Positions 6,831-56,493 are shown, counted from the stretch's first letter. The stretch: 64,000 nucleotides of DNA from Candidatus Atribacteria bacterium UBA6251 (GCA_002441285.1 DJVR01000034.1:3369-67368), one strand, 5' to 3'. Translations and numbers: made by a program. The notes: generated by a model not told the origin, from the letters alone.

Positions 6831-6842
6831 AGGTTTAGCATC

Positions 6843-6918
6843 TGGAGCGGGAAACGGGTTTCGAACCCGCGACACCCAGCTTGGAAGGCTGGTGCTCTGC
6901 CAACTGAGCTATTCCCGC
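6843..6918 (-). tRNA. tRNA-Gly (anticodon TCC), CCA encoded
   Basis: Reverse complement GCGGGAATAGCTCAGTTGGCAGAGCACCAGCCTTCCAAGCTGGGTGTCGCGGGTTCGAAACCCGTTTCCCGCTCCA. Confidence 0.9.
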
Positions 6919-6919
6919 C

Positions 6920-6996
<77 letters not shown>

Positions 6997-17194: not shown

Positions 17195-17290
17195 CACCTC
17201 CTTCGGTAATCCAGCCATCATAGCTATTAAATAGCTTTAGACCTGAGACTTTGCGTCCTACCCTTTCGGATAGTTTGCTATTATCGAGAG
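17195..17290 (-). ncRNA. c-di-GMP-I (GEMM) riboswitch candidate in the 5' UTR of the 16789-17190 gene
   Basis: Minus-strand RNA AUAGCAAACUAUCCGAAAGGGUAGGACGCAAAGUCUCAGGUCUAAAGCUAUUUAAUAGCUAUGAUGGCUGGAUUACCGAAGGAGGUG. This matches the Vc2-type consensus GGCAAACC-N-GAAA-N-GGGACGCAAAGCC-N-GGCCUAAA. The aptamer runs into the RBS. Confidence 0.7.
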
Positions 17291-20400: not shown

Positions 20401-20495
20401 TTTCCTTCTAATATCCTATAGGTCACCGCTTCTGGAACATAAGGTTTAAACAATTTTAATATTTTATTTTCTTGATTTTGTTTTTTCTTTTTCAT
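17406..20495 (-). CDS. Class III adenylate/guanylate cyclase domain + AAA/STAND ATPase + TPR repeats signalling protein
   Basis: 1029 aa. N-terminal CHD cyclase domain (VVFIDINGFTTLAE...FLGDGLMAIFG...RIGINTG). P-loop ISGESGIGKTRL. Long C-terminal TPR array. Confidence 0.8.
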   Translation of the reverse strand: MKKKKQNQENKILKLFKPYVPEAVTYRILEGKESLPSERREATVVFIDINGFTTLAERMDPEKATKVINSVFAPIVSIIEQYGGSINKFLGDGLMAIFGTPFSHENDPERAARASLEIMKSIAKNGKIKNKNKVISMKARIGINTGLCISGEIGSTCRKEFTVIGDTVNLASRLQEKSTPGSILIGEKTFQRIKDFFIFSKPRELKIKGKKNPVTAYILKREKNKDILSEQKRKYYTQFIGREKELKTLKAVLKNSFQSRGKIVEISGESGIGKTRLISELTNDSYTQKFILLSANCTSWEESKPYYIIKEIFNKIFQIKFEDEPQEIKKKIENKIKEVDASLLFASSYFLRFLSTNLNFTEKITNQFKRESDLLIGIMKKLFWSLSIQQPLLIIIEDMQWIDTASAEFLSQISKEIKEYPVLIIYSLQDSLKKNISLFEVKKIRLLPLKNKESKKLINFLDQEKYISSLMKDKIISMAHGNPLFIEEIISGIEERRWSLVEKDKLGKYSDVFDHFEIPDTVQSIARARIDLLPLALKEILYQASVLGKNIEIELLKKVINQEEKILLESLKKLQNYRFIEEITPATGHKNYFAFIHSIIQEIAYNSLLFEVRKDLHNKIGLAIEEIYSTKIDAKSEELAYHFKNSDNWQKALFYLNKAGDKAQFLYAFKNAIYYYLDSIKILESQDRLNNEQIKKLSEIYNKLAFSQSVIGKRKEAKTNFNKALKYSRKIKDQDNESLILINLGNIYGDMGQWDKSIEYLKKSLSLAIEMNNQKRMAIILKSIGLASIFKGDTSTGYSYLKESIDLSQRIKALDVYAMALNNIGIYYDMLGKWEKAIEAYQESLSIAQKNKNIIVVSNIMNNIGFAYSSLGDSEKAIHYLKESVKIADKIGDIYNKGINYIHLGEEYLKKSELKEVEYYISQAEKIFKELEDELGFADIYKLKGRLYKECKNYVDAELYFQQAIKLYSKFGDRINEAESYYEWGDMLKGMDELKKAALKLKKARKILYEIGTKRFIEEINKCLAEIKL

Positions 20496-20783: not shown

Positions 20784-22175
20784 TTATGGTCCAGTTACAA
20801 TAATTGACTGAAATGCATATCCGATATTTTCTTCTGAATCTTCTACTGTCAGCTGTACAAGATAAGTTCCTGCAGTACTGTAAGTATGAGTAGTTACCGG
20901 AGTAGGTGGTGTCTCATCATGTACCTCTATAGGGCTACCATCATTAAAGTCCCAGGTATAGCTGACTATAGTTGCACCAATTACCGAAGTAGTCGATTCT
21001 GATGCATCAAGTCCAACAGTAAAGGGAGCAGTTCCAGTTGCACTTGAAGGAGTAACCTTGATAACTGCATTTACTCCACTATCCACAGTAATGGTGACAC
21101 TTCCATAACCAACATTTCCTGCAGAATCCGTTATAGTTAGAACAACTATGTAAGTCCCAATATTTGTATAAGTATGAGAAGTAGTAACTCCTGTCCCGGT
21201 CGTTCCATCTCCAAAATCCCAACTATAATTAGCAGTCATAACTCCACATCCAGTTTCAAAAGTACTACCCGAAGCATCGAAATAGACTGTAAACGGAGCA
21301 GATCCTGTTGTACTCGGAGTAACCTGGATGTCCACACTTGTGACTCCTGTCTCTCCTACGGTAATTACTACTGTATCATAACCTTGTTTTCCCCAATAGT
21401 CAGTTACCGTTAATTTAACAATATAGGTACCACAACTACTATAAGTATGGGCTGCCGGCATAACTCCCGTTCCGGATGTTCCGTCTCCAAAATCCCAACT
21501 ATAACTGGCAATCCCGCGATCATCAGTAGAATCACTAGCATCGAAGATTACGGTAAAGGGTGCGGTTCCACTTACTCCAGGTATTACTTTAATCACTGCC
21601 TTTGGTGGTGTAAAGTCAATTCCTGGTTCTATAGCAGGTAAATTAACAGTAACCGATTTATTGATATTGTGACCGGCTCCATCGGTACCAAGTAAGGTTA
21701 TAGTACAAGTAAGTTCGGTTATTAAAGGATTCTTTTTTATATAATCTTTGACTTCTTGAAAATACAAAGGCATATTTTTAATTTCAGTAATTGGACCAGG
21801 GGTACCGGGAGTAGTGGATGGTTCAACATAAAAAGTAGCTCCCACCGTTTTAGTTAATGAACTTATTTTAGTATTTTCTTCATAATATTCGTATTTAAAA
21901 CCTGAACCAATAAATTCTACTTCATTTAAAGAATATACTTCCAAACTAATGGTGCCATCTTCTAAGTTAATTTCTGTATAATTCAATCTTATCTGCGCCT
22001 GGGGGTCAAAGATATTAAGAAGTCCAAAAGAAAGCCAGTTACACCCAACTAATGATATTATAAAACCTAACAATATGGTTATAAATAATATTTTATACAA
22101 ATTCTTTTTATTTTTATATTGCAAAGTCTTGTCCTCCTTTCGAATTATAATTTTGTCATTGCGAGCCTTCTGCAA
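20784..22175 (-). CDS. PKD-repeat surface (lipo)protein
   Basis: 463 aa. Lipobox-like LVGC after a hydrophobic segment. Four tandem PKD domains (YSWDFGDGTSGTG repeated three times, plus YTWDFNDGS). The annotated TTG start lies inside a dispersed repeat, so the true start is uncertain. Confidence 0.75.
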   Translation of the reverse strand: MQKARNDKIIIRKEDKTLQYKNKKNLYKILFITILLGFIISLVGCNWLSFGLLNIFDPQAQIRLNYTEINLEDGTISLEVYSLNEVEFIGSGFKYEYYEENTKISSLTKTVGATFYVEPSTTPGTPGPITEIKNMPLYFQEVKDYIKKNPLITELTCTITLLGTDGAGHNINKSVTVNLPAIEPGIDFTPPKAVIKVIPGVSGTAPFTVIFDASDSTDDRGIASYSWDFGDGTSGTGVMPAAHTYSSCGTYIVKLTVTDYWGKQGYDTVVITVGETGVTSVDIQVTPSTTGSAPFTVYFDASGSTFETGCGVMTANYSWDFGDGTTGTGVTTSHTYTNIGTYIVVLTITDSAGNVGYGSVTITVDSGVNAVIKVTPSSATGTAPFTVGLDASESTTSVIGATIVSYTWDFNDGSPIEVHDETPPTPVTTHTYSTAGTYLVQLTVEDSEENIGYAFQSIIVTGP

Positions 22176-34723: not shown

Positions 34724-36835
34724 TTATTCTCCTTTTCTATTTTTATCAAGATTCTTAATCTCTTTTTCTATATCTTCAATTATCGGACTGCCTTCCGGTG
34801 CTAATACTAAAGCTTCCAAAAAATATTCCAGTGCCTTGTCCGGCATTTCTTTTTTCTTATACACTATCCCTAAATTATTTAATACAATATACTTATTGTT
34901 AAAATTGGGTTCAATTTCTAAAATCTTATTCCACTGTTCGATAGTATCATCATATTTTTCTTGAGTAAAATATAGATACCCTAAATCATAATATGCCTTA
35001 GTAAATTTCGGGATAAGATAAGCGGCATACCGAAATTCTTCTTCTGCTTTTGAAAATAATCCTGCCTGGCGATAAACTAAACCTAAATTATAAAAGGTTT
35101 TGGCATCAATCCGATATCTGGTAGTCTGCAATAAAACTTCTTCAGCCTTAGTGAGATTTCCCAAATTATAATAAGTTGTGCCAAGGGCATGTAATATCCT
35201 TCCATTATAAGGATATAATGATGCGGCCTGCTCAAAATAAGATAAGGCCTCACTATAATTACCGTCCACATTGTGCCTCATACCCTTAAAATATTTTATT
35301 TCAGCAATATATGGTCTTACTGCTATTAAATTAATAGCCCATATCATAAAGACTAATACAATAATGGTCAGAGTAATTTTTATCCTTTTATTTTTTAATT
35401 TTGATTCTTTTGTTCTATTATCAGAATAAGTTTTGGGTAAATTTATCTTTCTGGCATATATTACAGTTAGTCCTAATAAAGCAAAAAAGGTTACCCCTAA
35501 TGCCGGCACATGAAAAGGAAAAGTAAACAGACAATGTATTAAAAAACAGGTAATACCCGAAACTAGACCAAAGACAATTATTTTTTCTTTGTCACTATCA
35601 TTTTCTTTCCAATAATCTATTATTAAACTATAAAATATCAGAATAATTCCGATAAATATCCCCAAACCGACTATTCCTATTTCCGCCCACATCTGCAGAT
35701 ATTCATTATGGGCCTCCCCTGCCTTTCCGGAATATTGTATATAGTAGGGATTGTTTTTTAAAAACTCTGCCTGATAGTTTAAATAATTCATTTTAAAAGT
35801 GCCAATCCCCGAACCAAATATGGGATTATCCTTAATCATTTCAAGAGTGGTCTTCCAGATTAACAGACGGGTATTGATGGAGGGGTCTTGCTCGTCAAAG
35901 GTGGATAGTGCTCTCTGGGGAACAGTTATGGCGCTTTTGTTGAGAGGATTGTCAGTGGAATAGATAATAGTAATTACCAGAAAAATTAATAAAAGTAAGG
36001 ACAGCCTTTTTTTATTTTCTTGAAATATTTTTAAAAGATTAAATTTAAAAATAATATAAATTGCTAATATTACAGTAAGACTGATGCTAATCCATATTCC
36101 CCGGCTCTGGCAAATCATTAAAGTCGCATAAAGGATAGATAATAAGAAAAAATATTTTATTTTATTTTTTTTGGTTTGCTCTAATAGAAAATAGGAAAAT
36201 ACTACCGGAAAAATCATCGCCAGGTAATTGGAAATCCAATTTTTCTGGCCAATTGTAGAAGTCAAGTTGTGTAAATCACTTAAATAGGGGTCTATACCAT
36301 AATACTGCATAAGGGTGTATATTGAGACGAGTAAGGAGATTATAAAGAATAGATAAATAAATGGATTAAAATCTTTCTTTCTATTTAGATTATTGGTTAT
36401 TAAAAAAAATATCAAAATATAAGATAAGAATATTATAAATTCCTGAAAACTTACTGCCTTTGTTTTGCTGATAAAAAGAGAAAGGAATAATACTAATGAA
36501 AACAAAATCAAAGGTAAGTCCAATTTAGTCCTTTGCAGAGAATATTTTCCGGTATTTATTATTTTCATCAAAAAAATAGCAAATAAAATTACATTGAATA
36601 GTTTAAGAATGGCTTCCTGGTTTACTCGGAAATCATAGACATATTTACTAGCAAATAAGGGAATAGTTATTAGCAATAATTGTAATAATATGGTTAATAG
36701 TTTCTGATAAATATTATCTTTTTCTATCCAGTACTTTTTCACTTTTACGCTTCTTTCGTATTTATTTAAAAATAAAAATAGCTCCAGATACAAATTTATA
36801 CCTGGAGCCATTTGCCTATTTCTACTATTTTGCAA
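34724..36835 (-). CDS. O-antigen ligase (Wzy_C)-family polytopic membrane protein with C-terminal TPR repeats; candidate pilin O-glycosyltransferase
   Basis: 703 aa. About 12 TM helices and a Wzy_C-like loop. TPR motifs in the C-terminal 250 aa. Located immediately downstream of pilA. The annotated first 20 codons overlap the pilA terminator hairpin, so the start is uncertain. Confidence 0.6.
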   Translation of the reverse strand: MQNSRNRQMAPGINLYLELFLFLNKYERSVKVKKYWIEKDNIYQKLLTILLQLLLITIPLFASKYVYDFRVNQEAILKLFNVILFAIFLMKIINTGKYSLQRTKLDLPLILFSLVLFLSLFISKTKAVSFQEFIIFLSYILIFFLITNNLNRKKDFNPFIYLFFIISLLVSIYTLMQYYGIDPYLSDLHNLTSTIGQKNWISNYLAMIFPVVFSYFLLEQTKKNKIKYFFLLSILYATLMICQSRGIWISISLTVILAIYIIFKFNLLKIFQENKKRLSLLLLIFLVITIIYSTDNPLNKSAITVPQRALSTFDEQDPSINTRLLIWKTTLEMIKDNPIFGSGIGTFKMNYLNYQAEFLKNNPYYIQYSGKAGEAHNEYLQMWAEIGIVGLGIFIGIILIFYSLIIDYWKENDSDKEKIIVFGLVSGITCFLIHCLFTFPFHVPALGVTFFALLGLTVIYARKINLPKTYSDNRTKESKLKNKRIKITLTIIVLVFMIWAINLIAVRPYIAEIKYFKGMRHNVDGNYSEALSYFEQAASLYPYNGRILHALGTTYYNLGNLTKAEEVLLQTTRYRIDAKTFYNLGLVYRQAGLFSKAEEEFRYAAYLIPKFTKAYYDLGYLYFTQEKYDDTIEQWNKILEIEPNFNNKYIVLNNLGIVYKKKEMPDKALEYFLEALVLAPEGSPIIEDIEKEIKNLDKNRKGE
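36768..36808 (-). terminator. Intrinsic terminator/attenuator after pilA
   Basis: Hairpin GCTCCAG...CTGGAGC followed by UAUUUUUAUUUU on the minus-strand RNA. Confidence 0.6.
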
Positions 36836-36839: not shown

Positions 36840-37262
36840 CTATTTCCTCGCAGTTAAAGGATTATCATATACATTACCATTATCATTGGTATTTCTTCCA
36901 TTAATAGTAAAAACATTATTACTATAAGTAACCCATACTTCTCCAGCAACGGCAGCATCCTCACTTGCTGGGCAAGTAGTTTGTGCGTTTCCAGTTACAG
37001 GATTATATATACCAGCATTTGCAAATACTACAGATGATAGTTTATCAGGTGTATCAATATCGGTTACTGGTCTATCAGCTAATTCTGCTTGAATCAAAGT
37101 TTGAATTGTTCCTGCATTGGCTTTAACTATCGCATTTTTTGCTTTATCCTGCTGGCCAGTATAAAGTCTTAATCCTAAGAGTGCTAATACACCGATGATA
37201 GCTACTACGACCATCAATTCGATTAAGGTAAAACCTTTTTTATTCTTTCTAAAATTATACAT
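36840..37262 (-). CDS. pilA: Major type IV pilin PilA
   Basis: 140 aa. Canonical class III signal KKG|FTLIELMVVVAIIGVLA. Short pilin with a C-terminal Cys. Confidence 0.9.
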   Translation of the reverse strand: MYNFRKNKKGFTLIELMVVVAIIGVLALLGLRLYTGQQDKAKNAIVKANAGTIQTLIQAELADRPVTDIDTPDKLSSVVFANAGIYNPVTGNAQTTCPASEDAAVAGEVWVTYSNNVFTINGRNTNDNGNVYDNPLTARK

Positions 37263-37404: not shown

Positions 37405-37500
37405 ATCGGTAGTTAGACAGTCATAACCCTTTTTTTGAAGAGATTAAGTTATTAGGTTTTAGACCCTAACTTTGCGCCCCATTCTTTCAAATGGTTTACC
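37405..37500 (-). ncRNA. c-di-GMP-I (GEMM) riboswitch candidate, proximal copy upstream of pilA
   Basis: Minus-strand RNA GGUAAACCAUUUGAAAGAAUGGGGCGCAAAGUUAGGGUCUAAAACC... aligns with Vc2 GGCAAACCAUUCGAAAGAGUGGGACGCAAAGCCUCCGGCCUAAACC. Confidence 0.7.
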
Positions 37501-37597
37501 TTTCTCAATTTTTTTATGACCCTGGATTTGATCACCTCCTGTTTTTCTTTTCATCTGCTAGTACATTTTTGTGTCTTATTTAAATAAATAAAAGGAA

Positions 37598-37700
37598 AGT
37601 CGGTAGTTTGGCAGTCATAGCAATCATAGTAATAATTACTTTAGACCCATAACTTTGCGCCCCATCTTTTCAGATAGTTTGCCTTTTTCAACTTTTAAAA
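37598..37700 (-). ncRNA. c-di-GMP-I (GEMM) riboswitch candidate, distal copy upstream of pilA (tandem)
   Basis: Minus-strand RNA AAGGCAAACUAUCUGAAAAGAUGGGGCGCAAAGUUAUGGGUCUAAAG..., the same consensus. About 200 nt upstream of the proximal copy. Confidence 0.7.
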
Positions 37701-37794
37701 GATTACTTATTCTATTTTCTATTTATATTATTCCATATTTTAAAAAATTTTAGACTAAAGAAGAATTTTTTTTACAATCTACAATATATGAAAA

Positions 37795-37844
37795 AAAGAA
37801 GAAAAAATCTATACTTAAAATTCTTTTTAATTTTAAGTATAGAT
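37795..37844 (-). terminator. Intrinsic terminator after the sigma/unknown-protein operon
   Basis: Hairpin ATCTATACTTAAAATT / AATTTTAAGTATAGAT followed by a U-run on the minus-strand RNA. Confidence 0.7.
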
Positions 37845-37879
37845 CTTTGAGCTGTAAATTAAGGATTTAGCCTTTTAAA

Positions 37880-38332
37880 TCAGGTATTTTCATAAACAAA
37901 GATTTGAAAATCATCACTGTTAAATCTTTGAAATTTTACACTATTTACCGCAGGTTTAACTACAAAGACTCTTTCATTATTATCATGAGGGTCAATTGGG
38001 TAAGCAAAAAAACCTTTTCTCTCTGGATTAAAACTATGGGTAGAACCATAAAAATTTTCGCCATCTTTAAAGATGATGACAATTTTACGTTGAGTAGGAA
38101 TAGGCTGAGGTTGTCCTTCGAAGGTTCTTACTTTTTGATAATCTTTATTCCCTTGATAATCTTTAACAAAAAATACTGCTTTTAATTCATTTACATCTAC
38201 TTCAACTAGTTTATCTCCGTATTCTTCCAAAGGATGAAGGTGAAAAATATCTTTGTTGGGATTAAAGTCAGTAGACCAACCTTTGATGATGGAGCCATCC
38301 TTGTATTTTACTACCATTTTGTTGGGTATCAT
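37880..38332 (-). CDS. Uncharacterized protein with internal tandem duplication (paralog B)
   Basis: 150 aa. Two ~65-aa repeats of the pattern VVKYKDGSIIKGW...F.P / IVIIFKDGENFYG...FFAYPIDP. Paralogous to 38391-38816. Confidence 0.6.
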   Translation of the reverse strand: MIPNKMVVKYKDGSIIKGWSTDFNPNKDIFHLHPLEEYGDKLVEVDVNELKAVFFVKDYQGNKDYQKVRTFEGQPQPIPTQRKIVIIFKDGENFYGSTHSFNPERKGFFAYPIDPHDNNERVFVVKPAVNSVKFQRFNSDDFQIFVYENT

Positions 38333-38390
38333 CTTAATCTCCTTGTCTCCTCTCTAGAATAGAAAGGTTAAAATAAATCCTTTCCTGGTC

Positions 38391-38816
38391 TTAAAAATCG
38401 TTTTCATTAGTTTTTATTTTTACAATAGCTTTACGAACTACAAAAATGCGTTCATTATTATCTTCCGGGTCAAGGGGAAAGACAAAAAATCCATCTTCAT
38501 ATCTTCCAAAATTATAACAGGTGCCATAGATCTCTTCCCCATCTTCAAAAAAAATAACTACTTTTTTTTGACTGGGTGTTACCTTGAATCTTTCATCATC
38601 AAAGTTTCTTACTTTCTGATAATCTTTATTACCGAAAAAATCTTTAACAAAAAAGATTGCTTTTAGGGGAGCAAATACGAGATTAAGAGTCTCCTTTGAG
38701 CTATATTCCATCAAGGGGTAAAGGGTAAAGAAATGACGTTCCGGACTAAAATCTTCTACCCAACCTTTAATAATTTCTCCATTTTTATATTTTACTACTA
38801 CCTTCTTTTTCAACAT
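38391..38816 (-). CDS. Uncharacterized protein with internal tandem duplication (paralog A)
   Basis: 141 aa. Same two-repeat architecture (VVVKYKNGEIIKGW... / VVIFFEDGEEIYG...FFVFPLDP). Confidence 0.6.
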   Translation of the reverse strand: MLKKKVVVKYKNGEIIKGWVEDFSPERHFFTLYPLMEYSSKETLNLVFAPLKAIFFVKDFFGNKDYQKVRNFDDERFKVTPSQKKVVIFFEDGEEIYGTCYNFGRYEDGFFVFPLDPEDNNERIFVVRKAIVKIKTNENDF

Positions 38817-38826
38817 AGCAAATTTC

Positions 38827-39543
38827 CTAAAGCTTAATATTTTTTAATTCCTTTCTTAAGGACTTAATGGCTTCTTTTTTAATGCGAGAAACCTGCTTCT
38901 GAGAAAGATCTAGAGCCTGAGCGGTTTTGGTCTGAGTTAAATCTTTAAGGAAGATATAATTAACCACTTTACGCTGGATATCTTTTAATTTGTTTAGAGC
39001 CATTTCTAAGGTAATTAAATCTTCTATAGGTAATTTAAAGCTCTGATAATGATCATTCTTTATTTTAGAAATAACCGGTAAATCCCGGTAGTCATACATT
39101 CTATTTTCCTGGTCAATAGAAACAGTATGCACTGCTTCCCTAGCCTTTAAAATCTCTTTTACTCCTTCTTCGGTAAGATTGAATTGAGCAGCAATTTGTT
39201 TAAGAGAAGGCATTTGGTTATTTTCTTTTTTGTATTTAAGAATATACTGATCGATTTTTTTATTTAATTCCATTACCCAGTGAGGAATTTTTATAGTTTG
39301 ATGCTTGTCCCGAATATAATGACGAATCTCTCCCGAGATAAGCCAGGAGGCATAAGTTTCAAATTTTACCTTCCGGGCTGGATCATAAAGGTTTAAGGCA
39401 TTAATTAATCCAATATAACCTACCTGCTCTAAATCCTCCAAAGGTTCTCCAGAATTGATAAATTTAGCTGCAATACTACGCACTAAAGGTTTATATTTTA
39501 AAATTATTTCATCATTTATTTCTTGAGTAGTTGACATTACCAC
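38827..39543 (-). CDS. Group-3 sigma-70-family sigma factor (FliA/SigB/SigF-like), paralog 2
   Basis: 238 aa. Region 2 (DLEQVGYIGLINALNLYDP...FETYASWLISGEIRHYIRD) and region 4 HTH (LTQTKTAQALDLSQKQVSRIKKEAI). Confidence 0.8.
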   Translation of the reverse strand: MVMSTTQEINDEIILKYKPLVRSIAAKFINSGEPLEDLEQVGYIGLINALNLYDPARKVKFETYASWLISGEIRHYIRDKHQTIKIPHWVMELNKKIDQYILKYKKENNQMPSLKQIAAQFNLTEEGVKEILKAREAVHTVSIDQENRMYDYRDLPVISKIKNDHYQSFKLPIEDLITLEMALNKLKDIQRKVVNYIFLKDLTQTKTAQALDLSQKQVSRIKKEAIKSLRKELKNIKL

Positions 39544-39594
39544 AAACTCATCATCCTTTTTTAAATTTACCCTTAAAAAAAGATTTTTTGGGGG

Positions 39595-40290
39595 TTATTC
39601 TTTTTCTAATTCTTCCTTTAAATCTTCCAGAGTCCTTTTTTTAATTCGAGAAACTTGCCGTTGACTCAAACCCAGTTTCTGCGCTACTTTGGTTTCGGTT
39701 AAATCCATTTCAAAAAGATAATAAATTACTTTTTTTTGAATATTTTTTAATTTTTGCACTGCCATCTGTAAGGTGATAATATCTTCAATAGGCAATCTAA
39801 AAGTTTGATAGTTTGTACTTTTGATACTACCAATTTTAGGAAAACTATCAGTTAATTCCACATTTCCATCTTTTTGGTCTAGAGAAATAGTCTTTGCAAG
39901 ATTATAAATTTTAAGAATTTCTTTTATTCCTTCTTCCGCAATATTAAATTTTTTTGATATTTCGCTTAAAGAAGGATCAGTTTTATTTTCTTCTTGATAA
40001 AAGAAGATATATTCATTAATTCTTTTATTCAACTTTCTCATCCATTCTGGTATTTTTATAGCTGATTTTTTATCTCTTAGATAATGTTGTATTTCACCAG
40101 AGATAAGCCAGGAAGCATAAGTCTCAAATTTAACCTTCTTAGCAGGATTATAAAGATTATAAGCATTAATCAGACCAATATAACCTACCTGTTCTAAATC
40201 TTCCAGAGGTTCTCCTGTATATTTAAATTTAGCGGCAATTCTTTTAACCAATGGTCGGTATTTTTCAATCTGTTTATCATTTATTTTCAC
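39595..40290 (-). CDS. Group-3 sigma-70-family sigma factor (FliA/SigB/SigF-like), paralog 1
   Basis: 231 aa. Same region 2/region 4 signatures as 38827-39543 (YASWLISGEIQHYLRD, LSQRQVSRIKKRTL). Confidence 0.8.
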   Translation of the reverse strand: MKINDKQIEKYRPLVKRIAAKFKYTGEPLEDLEQVGYIGLINAYNLYNPAKKVKFETYASWLISGEIQHYLRDKKSAIKIPEWMRKLNKRINEYIFFYQEENKTDPSLSEISKKFNIAEEGIKEILKIYNLAKTISLDQKDGNVELTDSFPKIGSIKSTNYQTFRLPIEDIITLQMAVQKLKNIQKKVIYYLFEMDLTETKVAQKLGLSQRQVSRIKKRTLEDLKEELEKE

Positions 40291-40404: not shown

Positions 40405-41616
40405 TTATTTTATTAAATTAACCATATTAAAGATGGGTAAATACATCGCAATAATCATTACTCCAACTGTACCGCCAATGACTAACATCATCAAAGGTTC
40501 AATAATGGAAGTTAATCTTTCCACACTGCGATCTACTTCTTCGTCATAGAATTTAGAGACATTGATCAACATTTCTTCTAACTCTCCACTCTCTTCACCT
40601 ACTAGAATCATCTGGGTAACCATAGGTGGAAATACACCGCTGGCAGCCAAAGGAGAGGAAATACTCTGACCTTCTTTTATTCTGGTTTTAGCTCCCAATA
40701 CTGCCTTAGAGATAACCAGATTACCGATAGCATTAGAAGAAACGGTTAAGGCTTCAATGATAGGAACACCGCTCTTGATTAAGGTACCTAAGATACGGGA
40801 AAACCTAGAAATAGCACTTTTACGGTTAATATCCCCTATAATAGGAGCATTTAACTTAAATCGATCAAAGTTTTGTCTTCCATTAGGAGTTTTAATATAG
40901 GCATATAAGCCAAAACTTAGAGCAATGATTAAACCAAAAAATAAATACCAGAATTTTCTAAACAAAATGGTTAGGGTTACAAAAAAATTAGTAAGAGCGG
41001 GAAGCTCTCCTCCAAACTGAGCGAATATTCCTACAAATTGTGGCAGGACAAAGGTAAGCATAAAGATAGCCATCAGAACAGCTGCTCCAATGATAAAGCT
41101 AGGATAACTCATTGCGGATCTGATCTTCTGCCTTAGGGCAAATTCTTTTTCCATTAAATCTGCAATCTTATTTAAAATTTCATCCAGAACCCCTCCTACC
41201 TCACCAGCTTTTATCATACTGATATATAATTCGGAAAATACGTTGGGGTGCTTAGCCATAGCATCAGCCAAGGTTGAACCACCTTCTACGTCAGTTTTAA
41301 CTGTGTTGATAATTCTGGACAAGGCTTTATTTTCTACTTGCTCAGTTAATATATTTAAAGAATTTACTAAAGTCAAACCAGCATTAACCATAGTAGCAAA
41401 CTGACGGTAAAAAATAGTTAAATCCCGAAATTTGATCCGATTAAAGAGAGATATCTCAACAGATAGAAATGTACTTTTTCTTTTTTCTTGAATGGAAGAA
41501 ATAAAATAATTCATTTCCCTTAGACGAGAGACTACGGCTGATTTGTTTTCTCCCTCCATTGTTCCGGTAAAAATTTTACCTGATCTATCTCTAACTTTAT
41601 ACACAAAAGTAGCCAT
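40405..41616 (-). CDS. pilC: Type IV pilus platform protein PilC (GspF family)
   Basis: 403 aa. Two T2SS-F repeats, three TM helices, N-terminus MATFVYKVRDRSGK. Confidence 0.9.
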   Translation of the reverse strand: MATFVYKVRDRSGKIFTGTMEGENKSAVVSRLREMNYFISSIQEKRKSTFLSVEISLFNRIKFRDLTIFYRQFATMVNAGLTLVNSLNILTEQVENKALSRIINTVKTDVEGGSTLADAMAKHPNVFSELYISMIKAGEVGGVLDEILNKIADLMEKEFALRQKIRSAMSYPSFIIGAAVLMAIFMLTFVLPQFVGIFAQFGGELPALTNFFVTLTILFRKFWYLFFGLIIALSFGLYAYIKTPNGRQNFDRFKLNAPIIGDINRKSAISRFSRILGTLIKSGVPIIEALTVSSNAIGNLVISKAVLGAKTRIKEGQSISSPLAASGVFPPMVTQMILVGEESGELEEMLINVSKFYDEEVDRSVERLTSIIEPLMMLVIGGTVGVMIIAMYLPIFNMVNLIK

Positions 41617-41832
41617 TTAGTACATATTCACCTCGCTTTTCCTTAGTCTCTAGTAAAGAGTGTCGAGAGAAAATTAAAATAAATAATTTTTTAGATCAAT
41701 CTGAATGATAATTTCTTGATTAATTTTACTACCATTCTAATAGTTAGTGTATTTTAATTTTACAGTTATTTTTAAATCTTTGTGTTTCTTTCTTTACTAT
41801 ATACTGAATATGGGTACTCAATATTATATTAT

Positions 41833-42978
41833 TTATACTTTGATAATTTCTTTTAGAACATTGATTATTTTTGGGTCATATTTTTTCCCGGTAAAAGAGA
41901 AAAATCTTTTTAATGCTTCTTTGTCGGGTAAAGAATTTTCTACATAATTATTCTTGCTATTATTATAAAGTATATTAGTAAAATCTTCAACCACAGCTAT
42001 AATCCGAGAAGCAAGAGGGATTTCTTCTCCTTTTAGCCCCTTGGGATAACCTGATCCGTCATAATTTTCGTGATGATGGAGGATAATGGGTGCTAAATCT
42101 TTGAATAAATGTATCTGTTTAAGCATATTTGCTCCAATTATAGGATGCATACTTATTTCTTTTTGAATTATAGGAGTTAGGTTTTCTCTTGGTCTTGGTT
42201 TGAAGCTAAGATCTATTTTATGGTTAGTTTTTAATTTACCAATATTATGTAAAAGTGCGGCATAATATAAGTTATTATATTCTTTCCCGACTATTCCTAA
42301 TTTATTACCAACCTGGGTAGCTAATCGTGCTACTTGCATAAAATAGCCTTTGGGACCAAGAGGGTCACTCTCTATGGCTTGAATCAATATCTCCATAATA
42401 TTTACAAAATAATTATTTAAATCTCTGATAATATTAGCATTTCTTAAAACGACTACAGCTTGATTAGCAAAAGAGGTTAAGGTCTGTTCATCATTTTTAT
42501 CGAAAAGTTTATTCTCTTTTTTATTGACTACCTCCATTACCCCTAATATTTCTTTCTCTAATATTAAAGGCACACAAATAATTGATTTAGTTTTAAATTT
42601 TGTTTTTTCATCAAATATTTTCTTCCATCGCTTATCTTTGGATACATCATTAACTATCAGAGAAATACCATTTTCAGCAACCCATCCAGCAATTCCTTCT
42701 CCAACTTTAACTTTATAGCCTCTTATTTCCTTGCTCTTTTTACCTAAACTTGCTTGAAAAGATAATTCTCTTTTCTCTTGGTCTAACAGCAATATAGAAG
42801 CAGCTTCTCCTTCTACGATTATAGTGGCATAATTAATTATCTTGTTTAACAAAATATCTAAATCTATAGTATGGGTTAAATCAAAAGTTATTTTATTTAA
42901 GGCATCTAATTGTAATAACTTCTTTTTGAGTTCACTAAATTTGTTATCTTCAACTATATTATTTTTATCATCAATCAT
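41833..42978 (-). CDS. GAF-domain + HD-GYP c-di-GMP phosphodiesterase
   Basis: 381 aa. N-terminal GAF. C-terminal HD-GYP signatures (LLHNIGK, HHHENYDGSGYPKGL). Confidence 0.8.
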   Translation of the reverse strand: MIDDKNNIVEDNKFSELKKKLLQLDALNKITFDLTHTIDLDILLNKIINYATIIVEGEAASILLLDQEKRELSFQASLGKKSKEIRGYKVKVGEGIAGWVAENGISLIVNDVSKDKRWKKIFDEKTKFKTKSIICVPLILEKEILGVMEVVNKKENKLFDKNDEQTLTSFANQAVVVLRNANIIRDLNNYFVNIMEILIQAIESDPLGPKGYFMQVARLATQVGNKLGIVGKEYNNLYYAALLHNIGKLKTNHKIDLSFKPRPRENLTPIIQKEISMHPIIGANMLKQIHLFKDLAPIILHHHENYDGSGYPKGLKGEEIPLASRIIAVVEDFTNILYNNSKNNYVENSLPDKEALKRFFSFTGKKYDPKIINVLKEIIKV

Positions 42979-43000
42979 TTTAATTCACCTCAATTAACTT

Positions 43001-44752
43001 TTAGGAGGTAACTACTCTTAAAACTTCGCTTATGGTAGTAATCCCTGCACAAACTTTTTTTATACCATCCTCCTTTAAGGTACACATACCTTCTTCAAGT
43101 GCAACTTCCTTAAGTTTTTTATTGTTTACGTTCTTAGTAATCAATTCTCTTATAGTGTCAGTGATAATCATTAACTCGAAGAGGGCAATTCTACCCTTAT
43201 ATCCTGTGTGCTTACAATTAGAACACCCTTCACCTTGGTATAAAGTTATCTCCGAACTTCTTATCTCATAGTCATTCATTATTTCTTGTATTTCGGGAGT
43301 TACTTCTAATACTTTTTTACATTGGGGGCAGATTCTTCTTACCAATCTTTGCGCAATAATACCAATTACTGAAGAAGAGATTAGAAATGGTTCAATTCCC
43401 ATATCGATTAATCTTATCACTGAACCGGGAGCATCGTTAGTATGTAGAGTACTTAGCACTAAATGCCCGGTAAGTGCTGCCTGGACTGCAATTTCGGCAG
43501 TTTCTTTATCTCTAATCTCTCCTACTAGCATAATATCAGGGTCCTGACGCAAAAAACTTCTTAAACCTGCCGCAAAAGTAAGTCCTATTTTTGGTTTAGC
43601 TTGAATCTGACTAATTCCCTTTAATCTATATTCTACTGGGTCTTCAATAGTCATAATCTTTTTTTCACTGGAATTCAATAAATTTAAAGCGGTATATAGG
43701 GTAGTAGATTTTCCACTTCCAGTAGGACCAGTAACCAGAATAATACCATTTGGCTTACTAATTAAAGAAACAAATTTGGGAAGAATATCTTTGGACAAAC
43801 CTAAAGAGTCTAAGTCTAATAAAATGCTCGCTGGATCTAAGATTCTTAATACTACACTCTCTCCATTTACAGTAGGGATAGTAGAAACTCTAATATTTAT
43901 ATTTCTTCCCCCCACTTTAACTTGAATTCTACCATCTTGCGGTAATCTTCTTTCGGCAATATCTAAATCAGACATTATTTTTATTCTAGAAATAACAGCT
44001 AAATGTAAATTTTTGGGTAGGGTCATTACATCGATTAATATCCCATCAATGCGATAACGCACTCTAAGGCTTTCTTCTCCAAATAATTCTATATGAATAT
44101 CACTGGCTTTCTCTTTAACTGCTCTCAAAATAATCAGATTAACCAGGGCAATTACTGGCGCTTCTTCGCTTTTACTTACTTCCGCAATATCACTAATTTC
44201 TTTTTCATCTTCTTTTAAAACGGTAACTTGCATATTTTCCAGTTTACCAATTACCTGATCCCATTCTTCCGTAATTCCATATACTTCATCTAAAGCTCGA
44301 TTAATATCTTCACCAAAAGCTAATACCGAATCAATATCATATCCTAATCTAATTTTTAATTCATCATGCGCAAAAACATCTAAAGGGTTTGCCATAGCTA
44401 CCAGTAATCTGTCTCTCTCTTTATCAATAGCAATAAGCTGATGTCTTCTAGACATCTCTTCAGGAATTAAGACTACTATGGTAGGATCAATATTTATTTC
44501 ATTTAAATTTACGTATTTTACCCCAATTTCATCAGCTAAAGCAAGCATCATTTCGTCTTTTTTAAGTATACCCAAATCAATAATTACCTTTTGTAATTCA
44601 TTACCACTATTTTTTTGAATTTTAATAATTCTATCTAATTGCTCATCATTGATTAAATTTCTCTTATATAAGATATCTAACAGGAAATTGCCCGTGATAC
44701 TTTTACTTATGTTTTTTTTCATTCTTCCTCTCCTAATGAATGCAAAGTGCAA
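43001..44752 (-). CDS. pilB: Type IV pilus assembly ATPase PilB (GspE family)
   Basis: 583 aa. N-terminal GSPII_E_N domains, Walker A GPTGSGKSTTLY, tetracysteine CPQC...CSNC. Confidence 0.9.
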   Translation of the reverse strand: MHFAFIRRGRMKKNISKSITGNFLLDILYKRNLINDEQLDRIIKIQKNSGNELQKVIIDLGILKKDEMMLALADEIGVKYVNLNEINIDPTIVVLIPEEMSRRHQLIAIDKERDRLLVAMANPLDVFAHDELKIRLGYDIDSVLAFGEDINRALDEVYGITEEWDQVIGKLENMQVTVLKEDEKEISDIAEVSKSEEAPVIALVNLIILRAVKEKASDIHIELFGEESLRVRYRIDGILIDVMTLPKNLHLAVISRIKIMSDLDIAERRLPQDGRIQVKVGGRNINIRVSTIPTVNGESVVLRILDPASILLDLDSLGLSKDILPKFVSLISKPNGIILVTGPTGSGKSTTLYTALNLLNSSEKKIMTIEDPVEYRLKGISQIQAKPKIGLTFAAGLRSFLRQDPDIMLVGEIRDKETAEIAVQAALTGHLVLSTLHTNDAPGSVIRLIDMGIEPFLISSSVIGIIAQRLVRRICPQCKKVLEVTPEIQEIMNDYEIRSSEITLYQGEGCSNCKHTGYKGRIALFELMIITDTIRELITKNVNNKKLKEVALEEGMCTLKEDGIKKVCAGITTISEVLRVVTS

Positions 44753-51471: not shown

Positions 51472-53187
51472 TTAACCTGCTACTCTTAGAACTTCTTCTA
51501 TAGTAGTAATCCCTTGAAGAGCTTTCTCTAAACCACTTTCCCTCAAGGTTTTCATCCCTTTTTTAATGGATTCTTCCTTGATTATGTCACTGGAAGTTTT
51601 GGATAGAATTAGTGAGCGTATCCTCTCATCTAGCTCCAGGATTTCATAGATAGAAGTTCTACCATAATAACCAGTATCTTTACATAAGGGACAACCTGCT
51701 CCTCTATATAGCTTTACCTGGTTATTCTGATCCAAATCTAATTCTTTTAATATCTCTGGAGGAGGAGGATATTCTTCTTTGCATTTTTCACAAATCACTC
51801 TCACCAATCTTTGGGCTAATACCCCAATTACTGAGGAAGAAATGAGGAAAGGTTCAATGCGCATATCTACCAACCTGGTTAATGCACTGGCTGCATCATT
51901 GGTATGTAAAGTACTTAAAACCAGGTGCCCCGTTAAGGCTGCCTGAATAGCTATCTCAGCAGTTTCTCGATCTCTTATCTCTCCAACCATAACAATATCT
52001 GGATCCTGTCTTAAAATTGATCTTAAGGCATTAGCAAAGTTTAAATTTATCTTCGGTAGAATTTGAATCTGATTAATACGGTTCAGCTTATATTCAACTG
52101 GATCTTCAATGGTAATGATATTTTTCTGTTTATAGTCCATTCTGTTTAAAGCCGCATATAAGGTTGTAGTTTTGCCACTTCCAGTAGGCCCAGTAATTAA
52201 AATAATCCCATAAGATTTGTTAATCATATTTTTAAATTGATTAAGTTGAGGAGTGGAAAAACCAAGTTGTTCTAACTCGATTAAACCTTTACTTTTATCC
52301 AGTAATCGTAATACTGTTTTTTCACCATAAATGGTGGGGATAGTAGAAACTCTAATATCCACCTCTTTACTACCAAATTGAACCTGGAAACCACCATCCT
52401 GGGGAAGCCGCCTTTCTGCAATATCCATCTTGGATAATATCTTTATTCGAGAAACAATAGCGGATTTTACTTTGAAAGGTAAATTTCTGATATCATGTAA
52501 GATTCCATCAATACGAAATCTTACCAGTATCCCTTTTTCATTAGGTTCAAGATGGATATCACTAGCCCGGTCTTTTACCCCTTGCACAATTAACATATTT
52601 ACTAATTGAATTACCGGTGCTTCTCTACTGATAGCTTCTAATTCTCGGAGGTCTTCTTCCCTCTCTTCCTCTTTAAGGATTACCTCGGTATCTAACTTAT
52701 TAAGAATATCATCATATTCTCCTAATTTATAATAACTATTAATGGTATTAATGATATCCTCTTCATCAGATAATACACATTTGACTTTATTTTTCTTAGT
52801 AATGCCTTTTACAAAATCAATGGCATGCACATCAAAGGGATTGGCCATAGCGATTACTAATTCATCTTTATCTACGCTGAGTGGAATTAATTTAAATTGT
52901 AGGGCAATTTTCTCTGGAATAACAGAAATTATTTCCGGATCTATGACCAGTTTGGTTAGATCTACATACTCAGTTTCGTAGATATGCTGCAAGACTTGAT
53001 AAAGCTCTTCCTTAGTTAAAGCTCCCATCTCAATTAAAATCTCCCCTATCTTTTTATTATTTCCTTTTTGTTGAGATTTGAGAGCTTTTTCTAATTGTTG
53101 AGTGGTAATAATTCCTTGGCCAACCAATATTTCTCCCAATTTTTTATTGGAATATTCTTTTCTTATTCTTTCCATAATCATCACCAA
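51472..53187 (-). CDS. Second GspE/PilB-family secretion ATPase (paralog)
   Basis: 571 aa. GSPII_E_N domain, Walker A GPTGSGKTTTLY, CEKC...CPLC. Confidence 0.85.
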   Translation of the reverse strand: MVMIMERIRKEYSNKKLGEILVGQGIITTQQLEKALKSQQKGNNKKIGEILIEMGALTKEELYQVLQHIYETEYVDLTKLVIDPEIISVIPEKIALQFKLIPLSVDKDELVIAMANPFDVHAIDFVKGITKKNKVKCVLSDEEDIINTINSYYKLGEYDDILNKLDTEVILKEEEREEDLRELEAISREAPVIQLVNMLIVQGVKDRASDIHLEPNEKGILVRFRIDGILHDIRNLPFKVKSAIVSRIKILSKMDIAERRLPQDGGFQVQFGSKEVDIRVSTIPTIYGEKTVLRLLDKSKGLIELEQLGFSTPQLNQFKNMINKSYGIILITGPTGSGKTTTLYAALNRMDYKQKNIITIEDPVEYKLNRINQIQILPKINLNFANALRSILRQDPDIVMVGEIRDRETAEIAIQAALTGHLVLSTLHTNDAASALTRLVDMRIEPFLISSSVIGVLAQRLVRVICEKCKEEYPPPPEILKELDLDQNNQVKLYRGAGCPLCKDTGYYGRTSIYEILELDERIRSLILSKTSSDIIKEESIKKGMKTLRESGLEKALQGITTIEEVLRVAG

Positions 53188-56119: not shown

Positions 56120-56340
56120 AAAATTATCCTGCTTAAAATGAAAAAATAAAACCCCGCTATGCCGTGTGCTTTAGGTTTTGATACCTGTCCTCAAACAGGT
56201 GGGTATCTACCTAAATGCTTGATGTTTCCGTGTTAACTTAAGCAGTTAACATTTGGTATTTACCAACCTCGCCAGAGGGGTAATGCACCTTAGGCCTACA
56301 TTCCACATTTAGAGATCGATTCCCTATTTAAAATTTGTTG
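56120..56340 (-). ncRNA. Candidate structured ncRNA (possibly 6S RNA/SsrS) upstream of MTHFS
   Basis: A 450-bp gene-free interval, locally GC-richer than its surroundings. Multiple stable hairpins on the minus strand (GUUAACUGCUUAAGUUAAC; GCAUUUAGGUAGAUACC...GGUAUCAAAACCUAAAGC). 6S RNA is frequently encoded immediately upstream of the MTHFS (ygfA) gene. No conserved primary sequence could be verified by eye. Confidence 0.25.
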
Positions 56341-56493
56341 GCTCAAAACTTCATTAGACATCACGAACATAGCAGGGTAGCTTTATTTTGATCTGCTCTA
56401 ATATTAGCATATTTTTATTCTTTTTTCAATAATCCTGGCTATTACACTTGCTCATGAAAAGTAAAAATCATATTATTTAAAAATTATGATAAT

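Follow-up and report, generated by a model that had tools for sequence, protein, structure and literature searches.

The 64-kb window, by which we mean the whole stretch of DNA analysed here, carries a type IV pilus cluster on its minus strand, and ORF calling located four consecutive genes within it: sigma1 (39595..40290; 231 aa, GTG start), sigma2 (38827..39543; 238 aa, GTG start), unkA (38391..38816; 141 aa) and unkB (37880..38332; 150 aa). Both the order and the coordinates agree exactly with the first-pass annotation. The intergenic gaps measure 51 nt (sigma1 to sigma2), 10 nt (sigma2 to unkA) and 58 nt (unkA to unkB). The upstream part of the cluster (40405..44752, minus strand) holds pilB (43001-44752; Pfam T2SSE and MshEN), a GAF-HD-GYP gene (41833-42978; Pfam GAF and HD_5) and pilC (40405-41616; Pfam T2SSF), an order that is kept in Atribacterota loci. 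On the same strand, downstream of unkB, lies the major pilin gene pilA (36840..37262; 140 aa, Pfam N_methyl 40.1 bits). The locus had also been described as rich in c-di-GMP components and free of flagellar genes. No flagellar genes were present among the scanned window ORFs, and the c-di-GMP parts comprise three riboswitches, one GAF-HD-GYP protein and two MshEN-domain ATPases; the description is corrected in that 'rich' refers to these parts, GGDEF and EAL genes being absent from the scanned ORFs. Literature searches returned nothing specific on pili, sigma factors or c-di-GMP in Atribacterota.

The two sigma genes are paralogous, as had been proposed (63% identity, E 6e-99). Judged by regions 2 and 4 of their sequences, both proteins are members of the sigma-70 family: Sigma70_r2 scores 63.3 bits for sigma2 and 58.7 bits for sigma1 (Pfam cutoff 24), and Sigma70_r4 scores 56.9 and 44.1 bits, respectively (cutoff 24.1). 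Sigma70_r3 gives 22.8 and 22.5 bits for the two proteins, slightly under its cutoff of 25.3, and residues 8-231 of sigma2 align end to end with the 256-aa sigma chain 8x6g_H, spanning the expected region 3. In our judgement, proteins of 231-238 aa leave no room for region 1.1. The top NCBIfam model for both is TIGR02980 (SigB/F/G; 186.6 bits for sigma2 and 164.4 bits for sigma1), but neither reaches the curated cutoff of 234.35 bits and they are therefore SigB/F/G-like, not members by NCBI's rule. The earlier designation as group-3 sigma factors is consistent with the best match and qualified by its score, and we refer to both as SigB/F/G-like sigmas of group-3 type. The second-best NCBIfam model for both is the cyanobacterial SigF model NF005644, while the σ28 FliA/WhiG model (TIGR02479) yields 108.8 and 102.7 bits against a cutoff of 189.6, so that neither belongs to that family. 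The nearest solved structures to sigma2 are 8x6g_H (E 9e-29) and SigF 1l0o_C (E 3e-25). By our reading of the alignment, regions 2.4 and 4.2 appear nearly identical between the two proteins. sigma1 belongs to a clade, s1, which is kept across Atribacterota, and sigma2 belongs to a second clade, s2. F.LPIED serves as a sequence signature of these sigmas.

A single transcript for the four genes had been suggested and is plausible, given the short gaps and a strong terminator that follows unkB with none inside. This intrinsic terminator (37786..37848, minus strand) consists of a 20-bp perfect stem followed by UUUUUUCUUCUUUUUUU, a U-rich tail, and has an MFE of -21.3 kcal/mol (z -5.0; none of 200 shuffles fold as well), which agrees with the earlier placement of a terminator downstream of unkB. 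It is AT-rich and was missed by a generic terminator scan. No coding-strand terminator was found inside the sigma1-unkB cassette, and the interval between pilC and sigma1 has no terminator-like fold, so the transcript may start upstream of sigma1. We predict one transcript that runs from sigma1 (or pilC) to the terminator at about 37790. A generic sigma-70 promoter scan returned 22 sites against 22.9 expected by chance. A conserved hairpin, GGGGTTCGATTCATCGAACCC, located upstream of the first sigma gene in related loci, was considered as a regulatory element and rejected, since it turned out to be a REP-like palindrome scattered over many intergenic sites; the window itself does not contain it.

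Between the terminator and pilA lie two tandem predicted c-di-GMP-I aptamers on the minus strand, the first at 37599..37693 (RF01051, 76.8 bits) and the second at 37405..37510 (60.4 bits), both covering model positions 1-87 and well above the gathering score of 35 bits. pilA had been called riboswitch-controlled, and its leader thus holds two such elements, not one. Tandem aptamers also occur in four related loci (L008, L010, L012 and L020). An A/G-rich conserved part of the leader was examined as a binding site for Sm proteins and set aside, as only promoters of the riboswitch-bearing class have it and orthology alone may account for it.

Behind the terminator that follows unkB, and upstream of the riboswitch leader, pilA has its own promoter-like motif, GTCTAA-N14-(G)GGAATAATATA (window 37755-37730), which reads GTCTAA-N14-TGGAAT(AATATA) at 37730..37755 on the minus strand and has a σB/F-like architecture. 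The motif occurs once in the 64-kb window, directly upstream of the riboswitch-pilA unit; no further coding-strand intergenic copies were found in the window, even with two mismatches and with the sigma operon and the other pil operons included. A search for group-3 promoter elements upstream of the pil operons had been suggested, and in the window the motif is confined to pilA. Across nine loci both blocks are invariant and the spacer is fixed in length and variable in sequence. We collected 30 distinct copies, almost all from related loci, and wherever the gene behind a copy was checked, a pilA-like gene or a riboswitch follows the motif. Within related loci the motif stands in front of every pilA paralog, and only one promoter type was seen. 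The σB consensus is GTTTAA-N15(+/-2)-GGGTAT, with N14 optimal (PMC9847131). The window motif matches it at 5/6 and 4/6 positions, its -10 block being TGGAAT instead of GGGAAT, and the version found in most related loci, GTCTAA-N14-GGGAAT, matches at 5/6 positions in both blocks with the optimal spacer, resembling GTTTAA-N14-GGGTAT (PMC9847131). This pattern of conservation is that of a promoter and makes the motif a candidate target of sigma1 and sigma2, with transcription predicted to start roughly 7-10 nt after GGAATAAT. It is possible that the housekeeping sigma uses this promoter instead, reading it as TTGTCT-N19-AATAAT, but the spacing would be poor.

A comparable arrangement was found outside Atribacterota. 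In 17 GC-rich loci of other phyla (one of them labelled Actinomycetes) a related SigB/F/G-like sigma gene directly follows pilC, and these out-group sigmas score 167-172 bits with TIGR02980, also below the cutoff. Seven of the 14 GC-rich loci that were scanned carry GTCTAG-N13-(G/A)GG(T/C)AGTATAG and then a c-di-GMP-I riboswitch after the sigma gene, with pilA directly next in five of the seven. The GC-rich motif can also be given as GTCTAG-N13-GG(G/C)(T/A)AGTAT. We found neither DUF6982 genes, the family to which unkA and unkB belong (see below), nor HD-GYP genes in these out-group clusters.

These observations favour the earlier proposal that the sigma factors control type IV pilus genes, with pilA as the predicted target: a conserved σB-like promoter precedes the riboswitch-pilA unit, and the order sigma, promoter, riboswitch, pilA recurs in GC-rich phyla. 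We regard control of pilA by the sigmas through a dedicated promoter as well supported and probable, because the motif precedes pilins and because the GC-rich phyla repeat the sigma-motif-riboswitch-pilA order without DUF6982. As the first step of the proposed mechanism, sigma1 and sigma2 would probably direct RNA polymerase to GTCTAA-N14-(G)GGAATAATATA at 37755-37730. As the second step, the transcript would open with two c-di-GMP-I aptamers, whose function is taken from the known family, so that pilA output would need both an active sigma and the right c-di-GMP level. Such a leader would make a two-layer gate, with initiation set by the sigma and read-through or translation of the leader set by c-di-GMP.

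The closest known counterpart of this part of the circuit is found in cyanobacteria (Synechocystis and Nostoc punctiforme), where expression of pilA depends strictly on SigF, whose regulon is very small (PMC6495340). In both cases a SigB/F/G-type group-3 sigma appears to serve mainly the major pilin gene, NF005644 is the second-best model for our two proteins, and the motif is found only at pilA in the window. The present system differs in that the sigma genes are duplicated and located between pilC and pilA within the pilus cluster, that DUF6982 genes follow them, and that the target transcript bears c-di-GMP riboswitches; sigma dependence is inferred here. In Clostridioides difficile the major pilin gene pilA1 likewise lies behind a c-di-GMP riboswitch, Cdi-2-4, in its 5' UTR (PMC6200980), but this is a single class II aptamer, whereas the leader described here has two class I aptamers in tandem and an alternative-sigma promoter.

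The two genes downstream of sigma2 had been left without any named family. Both products match Pfam DUF6982 (PF22478), with 96.8 bits for unkA (residues 3-134) and 95.3 bits for unkB (residues 4-133) against a gathering cutoff of 24.5 bits and a model of 134 positions, and this is their sole Pfam match. On sequence grounds they are members of this uncharacterised family, for which we found no paper naming it. unkA (type d1) and unkB (type d2) are 50% identical (E 3e-43), consistent with the earlier view that they are paralogous, and type d2 is kept across Atribacterota. An internal duplication had also been reported for both, and comparison of the N-terminal with the C-terminal half supports it (z = 7-13 above shuffles), as does an AlphaFold model (pLDDT 84, pTM 0.82) with two five-stranded, all-β barrels. 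In the model both barrels are small and SH3/Sm-like, and no solved structure is close to them; a search of the DUF6982 profile against PDB sequences returned noise only (best E 0.014, to NCAM Ig domains). Neither protein has a Pfam PilZ match, and the RxxxR and [D/N]xSxxG motifs are both missing. A motif search likewise found no I-site pair and no RsiG or BldD c-di-GMP motif in unkA or unkB.

As a third step we propose, tentatively and with somewhat less than even confidence, that unkA and unkB are cytoplasmic proteins, co-transcribed with the sigmas, which would act as a lineage-specific modulator of the sigma/c-di-GMP circuit. Most likely they would do so as an anti-sigma factor or adaptor that contacts the sigma or the holoenzyme and couples it to c-di-GMP signalling; they would form an accessory layer and not an obligatory one-to-one partner of each sigma. 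Atribacterota-type loci were collected by way of DUF6982 or of pilC, and in every one that has enough sequence the DUF6982 genes come immediately after the sigma gene or genes. Roughly 45 loci were recovered that could supply paired sigma and DUF6982 sequences. No HATPase_c (RsbW/SpoIIAB) or STAS (RsbV/SpoIIAA) domain was found in any scanned window ORF, unkA and unkB included, and the absence of such a partner speaks for a modulator role. So does the fusion of DUF6982 to the signal-receiver domains PilZ, REC and FHA, as would be expected of an output domain. Against this role, the sigma-promoter-riboswitch-pilA module of other phyla lacks DUF6982, and the copy numbers of sigma and DUF6982 genes are not one-to-one. 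Co-occurrence of unkA-like genes with sigma factors, a link that the first-pass annotation had implied, holds in the pilus loci of Atribacterota but not elsewhere: outside the phylum a DUF6982 gene was never seen beside a sigma gene in the contexts examined, so that conserved gene order in a single phylum could account for the link to sigma genes. Taken together, the sigma and DUF6982 genes may form a pilin-expression control cassette inside the type IV pilus cluster of this Atribacterota genome; for the full explanation, with all three steps, we consider the case to be evenly poised.

The wider family offers a different reading of DUF6982. A profile search recovered 1,413 DUF6982 family clusters at 50% identity. 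The genome scan was run with alignment A1, as the diverse alignment A2 proved too divergent for it. PilZ lies N-terminal to DUF6982 in 22 of 54 long members, and a large subfamily of 430-490 aa has the architecture PilZ-linker-DUF6982. The PilZ part of these relatives is a separate N-terminal domain that carries RxxxR and DLSxGG. Three loci lay on long contigs, and in each of them 4-21 bp separate an HD_5/HD-GYP-family gene from the fusion gene downstream of it. These neighbours, like the fusions to PilZ, REC and FHA, link DUF6982 to signalling, especially to c-di-GMP. The protein could accordingly be an adaptor or effector of the c-di-GMP pathway that acts on the HD-GYP phosphodiesterase, the MshEN-type PilB ATPase or the pilus machine, its adjacency to the sigmas arising only from the common pilus cluster. 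The window cluster does hold a GAF-HD-GYP gene and an MshEN PilB, and the out-group clusters lack HD-GYP and DUF6982 alike. We nevertheless consider this reading unlikely. Members of a deep Atribacterota lineage (L066, L063 and L065) keep sigma and DUF6982, and L066 has no HD-GYP gene between pilB and pilC, a region that is covered there. The DUF6982 genes of Atribacterota always come directly after a sigma gene and not after the HD-GYP gene, unkA and unkB have none of the c-di-GMP-binding motifs sought, and stand-alone DUF6982 members of other phyla had no c-di-GMP neighbours in the contexts examined.

The predicted fold also raises the prospect of an Sm/Hfq-like RNA binder that acts post-transcriptionally, for example on the structured pilA leader or on the sigma mRNA. 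The folds closest to the model are those of the RNA binders Hfq/LSm and of YaeO (Rof), an Sm-like protein that binds and inhibits Rho. All of these scores are weak, however, similar to those of the 53BP1 tandem Tudor domains, and suit Tudor, SH3 or KOW protein-binding barrels equally well. DUF6982 also lacks sequence-level membership of the Sm/LSm/Hfq and YaeO groups, as neither the LSM nor the Hfq model of Pfam matches unkA or unkB and no solved Sm protein is significantly similar to them in sequence, and it differs from Sm/LSm/Hfq proteins in being a tandem fusion of two barrels whose model has no N-terminal helix. The two proteins are near neutral (pI 6.4-6.6), which does not favour RNA binding, although pI ranges from 5.0 to 10.9 across the family, so that charge is not diagnostic of RNA or protein binding. 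The A-rich leader occurs with one promoter class only, and its conservation may simply be that of orthologous leaders. RNA-related neighbours of DUF6982 genes are anecdotal. We judge an RNA-binding role fairly improbable.

The first-pass annotation had viewed the four genes as cognate pairs, each sigma with its own modulator, perhaps anti-sigma-like or signal-binding. The genes are adjacent and probably co-transcribed, most Atribacterota loci carry two sigmas and two DUF6982 genes, and both duplications appear to be old, having occurred early in the phylum. Strict pairing is nonetheless improbable, since single-copy loci mix the types (s1 with d1 in L016, s2 with d1 in L009, s2 with d1 and d2 in L013), counts are uneven (one sigma and three DUF6982 genes in L049, two and three in several loci), the promoter-recognition regions of the two sigmas read as nearly identical, only one promoter type is seen, the out-group module lacks DUF6982, and DUF6982 has no sigma neighbours outside Atribacterota. 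A mirror-tree analysis controlling for pilC gave partial correlations of 0.82 for s1-d1 and 0.70 for s2-d1, but it is not discriminating because the HD-GYP gene correlates as strongly (0.67-0.82); d2 correlated with nothing, probably owing to mixed orthology in loci with three DUF6982 genes.

What survives of the earlier proposal is a possible anti-sigma-like or signal-linked role of unkA and unkB, as in the modulator reading that we prefer. That reading has two points of reference among known systems. In the partner switching of σB and σF (RsbV-RsbW-SigB and SpoIIAA-SpoIIAB-SigF), the sigma belongs to a similar subfamily, that of the nearest structures 8x6g_H and 1l0o_C, and candidate regulator genes likewise lie in the sigma operon. 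The rsbW and spoIIAB genes lie upstream of their sigma, whereas here neither an RsbW/SpoIIAB kinase nor a STAS antagonist is found in the scanned ORFs, all-β DUF6982 proteins are encoded downstream of the sigmas, and both sigmas score below the TIGR02980 cutoff. In Actinomycetota, the RsiG-(c-di-GMP)-WhiG switch targets type IV pilus genes in Rubrobacter, with E(X)3S(X)2R(X)3Q(X)3D as the c-di-GMP-binding signature of RsiG (PMC12871210). As proposed here, an alternative sigma tied to c-di-GMP controls pilus genes, and the switch provides a conceptual model for a small partner that couples c-di-GMP to sigma activity. RsiG is helical in fold, whereas unkA and unkB are predicted to be all-β and lack the RsiG signature, and WhiG belongs to the σ28 family, whose FliA/WhiG model gives only 103-109 bits here against a cutoff of 190. 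The anti-sigma factors known to us are for the most part helical or resemble kinases, and none of them has a tandem Sm/SH3-like β-barrel fold, so that in such a role DUF6982 would represent a new fold. A bolder and rather doubtful extension is that DUF6982 constitutes a new class of sigma modulators, anti-sigma factors or adaptors built of tandem Sm/SH3-like barrels, serving as the output domain of a c-di-GMP branch that in Atribacterota gates a pilin-specific sigma.

Atribacterota is, as far as we are aware, a widespread subsurface phylum of which hardly any members have been cultured and for which genetic tools are lacking. The locus offers a concrete candidate circuit for pilus production in this phylum, in which a defined promoter motif, candidate sigmas and tandem aptamers would act on one target gene. 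The promoter-like motif upstream of the pilA riboswitch leader is new here, and we found no published description of the sigma-promoter-riboswitch-pilA module in literature searches. Its presence in unrelated GC-rich bacteria suggests a general wiring of pilin expression. For DUF6982, which spans many phyla with at least 1,400 clusters, the analysis provides a first clue to function: fusions to PilZ and adjacent HD-GYP genes connect the family with c-di-GMP signalling, and in one phylum it is also linked to an alternative sigma. Binding to sigma or RNA polymerase would establish DUF6982 as a new regulator fold, and binding to RNA would make it a new family of bacterial Sm-like proteins. Should it prove to be a general c-di-GMP output domain, this would explain its PilZ, REC and FHA fusions and its HD-GYP partners, and, with DUF6982 acting alongside the tandem riboswitches, c-di-GMP would gate pilus production coherently at two levels.

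The four minus-strand open reading frames (ORFs) predicted in the first-pass annotation were recovered with exactly the same boundaries: sigma1 (39595–40290, 231 aa), sigma2 (38827–39543, 238 aa), unkA (38391–38816, 141 aa) and unkB (37880–38332, 150 aa), separated by gaps of 51, 10, and 58 nt. The claimed paralogy also held up, with 63% identity between the two sigma factors and 50% between the two unknowns, both members of Pfam family DUF6982 (PF22478), as did the internal repeats of the latter (N-terminal half against C-terminal half 7–13 standard deviations above shuffled controls). Directly 3' of unkB, where a terminator had been proposed, a perfect 20-bp hairpin ends in a U-rich tail (-21.3 kcal/mol, z = -5.0) and resembles a strong intrinsic terminator. 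Nothing similar was found between pilC and sigma1, so the transcript may begin further upstream than sigma1. Homologs place the source in Atribacterota (Ca. Caldatribacteriota). The cassette is embedded in a complete type IV pilus cluster. It is preceded by pilB with an MshEN domain, a GAF-HD-GYP gene, and pilC, and the terminator is followed by a promoter-like motif, two riboswitch aptamers, pilA (36840–37262, minus strand), a Wzy_C/TPR protein, pilD, minor pilins, pilM/N/O, and the pilQ secretin. Outside the cluster, the window is taken up by housekeeping genes. As previously reported, flagellar genes were not seen among the window ORFs scanned, and neither were GGDEF, EAL, RsbW, or STAS genes.

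Several other genes were recorded in the window, all on the minus strand apart from the PKD-repeat protein, which is listed without a strand. The GAF-HD-GYP protein (41833–42978) has LLHNIGK in place of the LLHD[IV]GK seen in four of six orthologs checked (the other two had no pattern match), and its GYP motif HHHENYDGSGYP is intact. The altered HD dyad might affect catalysis, and the protein could be a sensor and not an enzyme. The 703-aa Wzy_C (O-antigen ligase-like) and TPR protein (34724–36835), a candidate pilin glycosyltransferase, starts 4 nt after pilA, a position conserved in related loci. MshEN is a c-di-GMP-binding type of domain, and a second PilB-like ATPase carrying it (51472–53187) is encoded away from the pilus genes, flanked by alaS and an S1-domain gene. 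A 1029-aa protein with adenylate/guanylate cyclase, AAA_16, and TPR domains (17406–20495), which may provide second-messenger input, sits at the cluster's distal end beside a 463-aa PKD-repeat protein (20784–22175). A 6S RNA gene (56147–56381, 97 bits) and seven clustered tRNA genes (6389–6996) are also present in the window.

In both sigma factors, matches to Sigma70 regions 2 and 4 exceed their Pfam cutoffs, and the match to region 3 falls just short of its own. The best NCBIfam model for both was the SigB/SigF/SigG subfamily (187 and 164 bits), with far lower scores for FliA/WhiG. Since the curated cutoff is 234, their sequences mark them as SigB/F/G-like group-3-type sigma factors that are not members by NCBI's rule. 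The nearest solved structures are SigF (1l0o_C) and 8x6g_H (deposited as "RNA polymerase sigma factor"), which its chain length and a companion entry suggest is Staphylococcus aureus SigB. The presumed regions 2.4 and 4.2, whose borders are our own reading of the pairwise alignment, are nearly identical in sigma1 and sigma2, suggesting that both should read the pilin promoter class.

DNA upstream of the riboswitch was aligned from nine loci, revealing two invariant blocks, GTCTAA and (T)GGGAATAATATA, separated by a spacer of variable sequence and constant length (14 nt), the kind of conservation that promoters are expected to show. The window copy (GTCTAA-N14-TGGAAT, 37755–37730, minus strand) is the only one in 64 kb; with two mismatches allowed, coding-strand intergenic sequence yielded no others. 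Across all fetched loci there are 30 distinct copies, and each copy with a downstream gene checked precedes a pilA-like gene, directly or via a riboswitch leader. The motif resembles σB/σF promoters: it matches the Bacillus subtilis SigB consensus, GTTTAA-N15(±2)-GGGTAT with N14 optimal (PMC9847131), at five of six positions in each block with optimal spacing in most related loci (the window copy reads TGGAAT, with four of six in that block). Of the group-3-type promoters sought upstream of the pil genes, a candidate lies at pilA. The riboswitch annotated before pilA is present, but according to Rfam it is a tandem pair of c-di-GMP-I aptamers (37599–37693, 76.8 bits, and 37405–37510, 60.4 bits, both minus strand). 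Tandem aptamers also occur in four other fetched loci (L008, L010, L012, and L020), and for some of these the top-scoring model is the c-di-GMP-I-GGC variant (RF03167). A third c-di-GMP-I riboswitch (17202–17289, minus strand, 84 bits), upstream of which the pilin promoter motif was not found, lies ahead of a 133-aa ORF (16789–17190, minus strand) without a Pfam match and with a hydrophobic segment at the N terminus.

Our first set of loci was found entirely through DUF6982 and is therefore a biased sample, so a second set of 80 metagenome loci was fetched through pilC and then annotated. In Atribacterota-type loci (pilC 60–89% identical, GC 32–38%), sigma genes followed by DUF6982 genes were present in every locus with enough downstream DNA, except L068 (1.4 kb downstream of pilC, lacking a sigma gene) and L040 and L053 (inverted pieces). 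Most have two sigma and two DUF6982 genes, several have 2+3, one has 1+3, and one has 1+1. In 17 distant loci (pilC 43–49% identical, GC 49–69%), a related sigma gene directly follows pilC, and DUF6982 and HD-GYP genes are absent from all 17. These sigma factors have the same profile as those of Atribacterota (best NCBIfam model SigB/F/G, approximately 170 bits), all carry the signature F.LPIED, and one sigma cluster is labelled "Actinomycetes bacterium". A c-di-GMP-I riboswitch was detected downstream of sigma in 7 of the 14 distant loci scanned (directly before pilA in five), and all seven have GTCTAG-N13-(G/A)GG(T/C)AGTATAG approximately 37 nt before the aptamer. These sequences indicate a module of sigma, promoter, c-di-GMP riboswitch, and pilA that is present in more than one phylum. 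This recurrence is the strongest evidence that the sigma factors drive pilA and, together with the dedicated promoter, it supports for pilA the earlier suggestion that they control pilus genes. We consider it quite likely that sigma1 and sigma2 are pilin-specific initiation factors.

The out-group loci (L075–L110; e.g., L086:1302-2900, L097:8226-9400) have pilB, a second pilB-like ATPase (probably pilT), pilC, the sigma, the motif (also rendered GTCTAG-N13-GG(G/C)(T/A)AGTAT), the riboswitch, and pilA. In some related genomes, pilC is separated from the first sigma gene by a pair of inserted small ORFs (L008:1057-1748, L015:3463-4371, L017:2979-3486), which by eye look like a candidate antitoxin/toxin pair. 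These insertions suggest that the junction is an insertion hot spot and that a separate promoter probably drives the sigma operon in the genomes concerned. A dispersed perfect palindrome, GGGGTTCGAT(T/G)(C/A)ATCGAACCC, is found in intergenic DNA of related Atribacterota (L005–L072; e.g., L008:1713, L012:4446), often contiguous with the first sigma gene's ribosome-binding site, and is missing from the window. It is accompanied by the repeats GTCATTGCGAG...GCAATCTC and CCTCCCCCTTGAGGGGGAGG and looks like a REP or MITE-like element. In deep-branching Atribacterota (L018, L019, L063, L065, L066) the first sigma is truncated to approximately 180–190 aa and scores weakly; by tree, L018 and L019 have the DUF6982 order swapped, with the unkB type (d2) first.

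The DUF6982 family is large, with 1,413 clusters at 50% identity, and has members in Acidobacteriota, NC10, Nitrospirota, Syntrophales, Elusimicrobia, and Clostridia. Fusion proteins make up approximately one third of the 150 top representatives. An N-terminal PilZ domain is present in 22 of 54 proteins scanned, and REC, FHA, or DnaJ in single cases. DUF6982 is usually C-terminal in fusions, behind a Pro/Ala-rich linker in those read, which is usually how the output domain of a signalling protein looks. In all three long-contig loci, the PilZ-DUF6982 gene follows, at a distance of 4–21 bp, an HD-GYP-family gene whose product is membrane-anchored and carries the variant motif HHDKFDGSGYHP; the pair looks like a conserved two-gene c-di-GMP module. 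Through its PilZ fusions and HD-GYP neighbours, DUF6982 is linked with c-di-GMP signalling in two or more phyla. At L032:5030-7401, L033:5040-7374, and L034:5053-7407 the fusion is a 430–490-aa protein (PilZ, helical region, Pro/Ala linker, DUF6982) with relatives labelled Acidobacteriota.

In Atribacterota, DUF6982 genes accompany the sigma genes, the deep lineage included. The predicted co-occurrence of unkA-like genes with sigma and pilus genes holds for Atribacterota loci but not for the DUF6982-free distant modules or for stand-alone members elsewhere, whose surroundings are variable and mostly housekeeping, with no sigma or pilus genes beside them in the neighbourhoods examined. The most likely reading, which we advance tentatively, is that unkA and unkB would form an accessory layer specific to this lineage, acting on sigma or the holoenzyme and connecting it to c-di-GMP signalling. 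A less likely possibility is that DUF6982 is an adaptor for HD-GYP, PilB, or the pilus machinery; an HD-GYP gene was not found between pilB and pilC of the deep lineage where that interval was covered (L066), and this lineage has kept sigma and DUF6982. It seems unlikely that DUF6982 acts on the leader by binding RNA in the manner of Sm proteins. Strict cognate sigma/modulator pairs, as originally proposed, are improbable: the sigma (s1/s2) and DUF6982 (d1/d2) duplications are both old, and the copies mix (s1+d1 in L016, s2+d1 in L009, s2+d1+d2 in L013, and 2+3 in others), which argues that the pairing is not one-to-one.

The individual parts resemble known systems. Cyanobacterial SigF, for which pilA is nearly the only stringent target (PMC6495340), is a precedent for a sigma factor devoted to a pilin gene; RsiG-WhiG is a sigma switch armed by c-di-GMP that in Rubrobacter acts on pilus genes (PMC12871210); and pilA1 of C. 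difficile is under a c-di-GMP riboswitch (PMC6200980). In the literature searched, we found no description of a sigma gene embedded between pilC and pilA, of class I c-di-GMP aptamers fed directly by a dedicated sigma promoter in more than one phylum, or of DUF6982 attached to a sigma-pilA module in Atribacterota. In the proposed scheme, whose steps are each directly testable, the sigma factors and the tandem riboswitches would together impose a two-layer gate on pilA.
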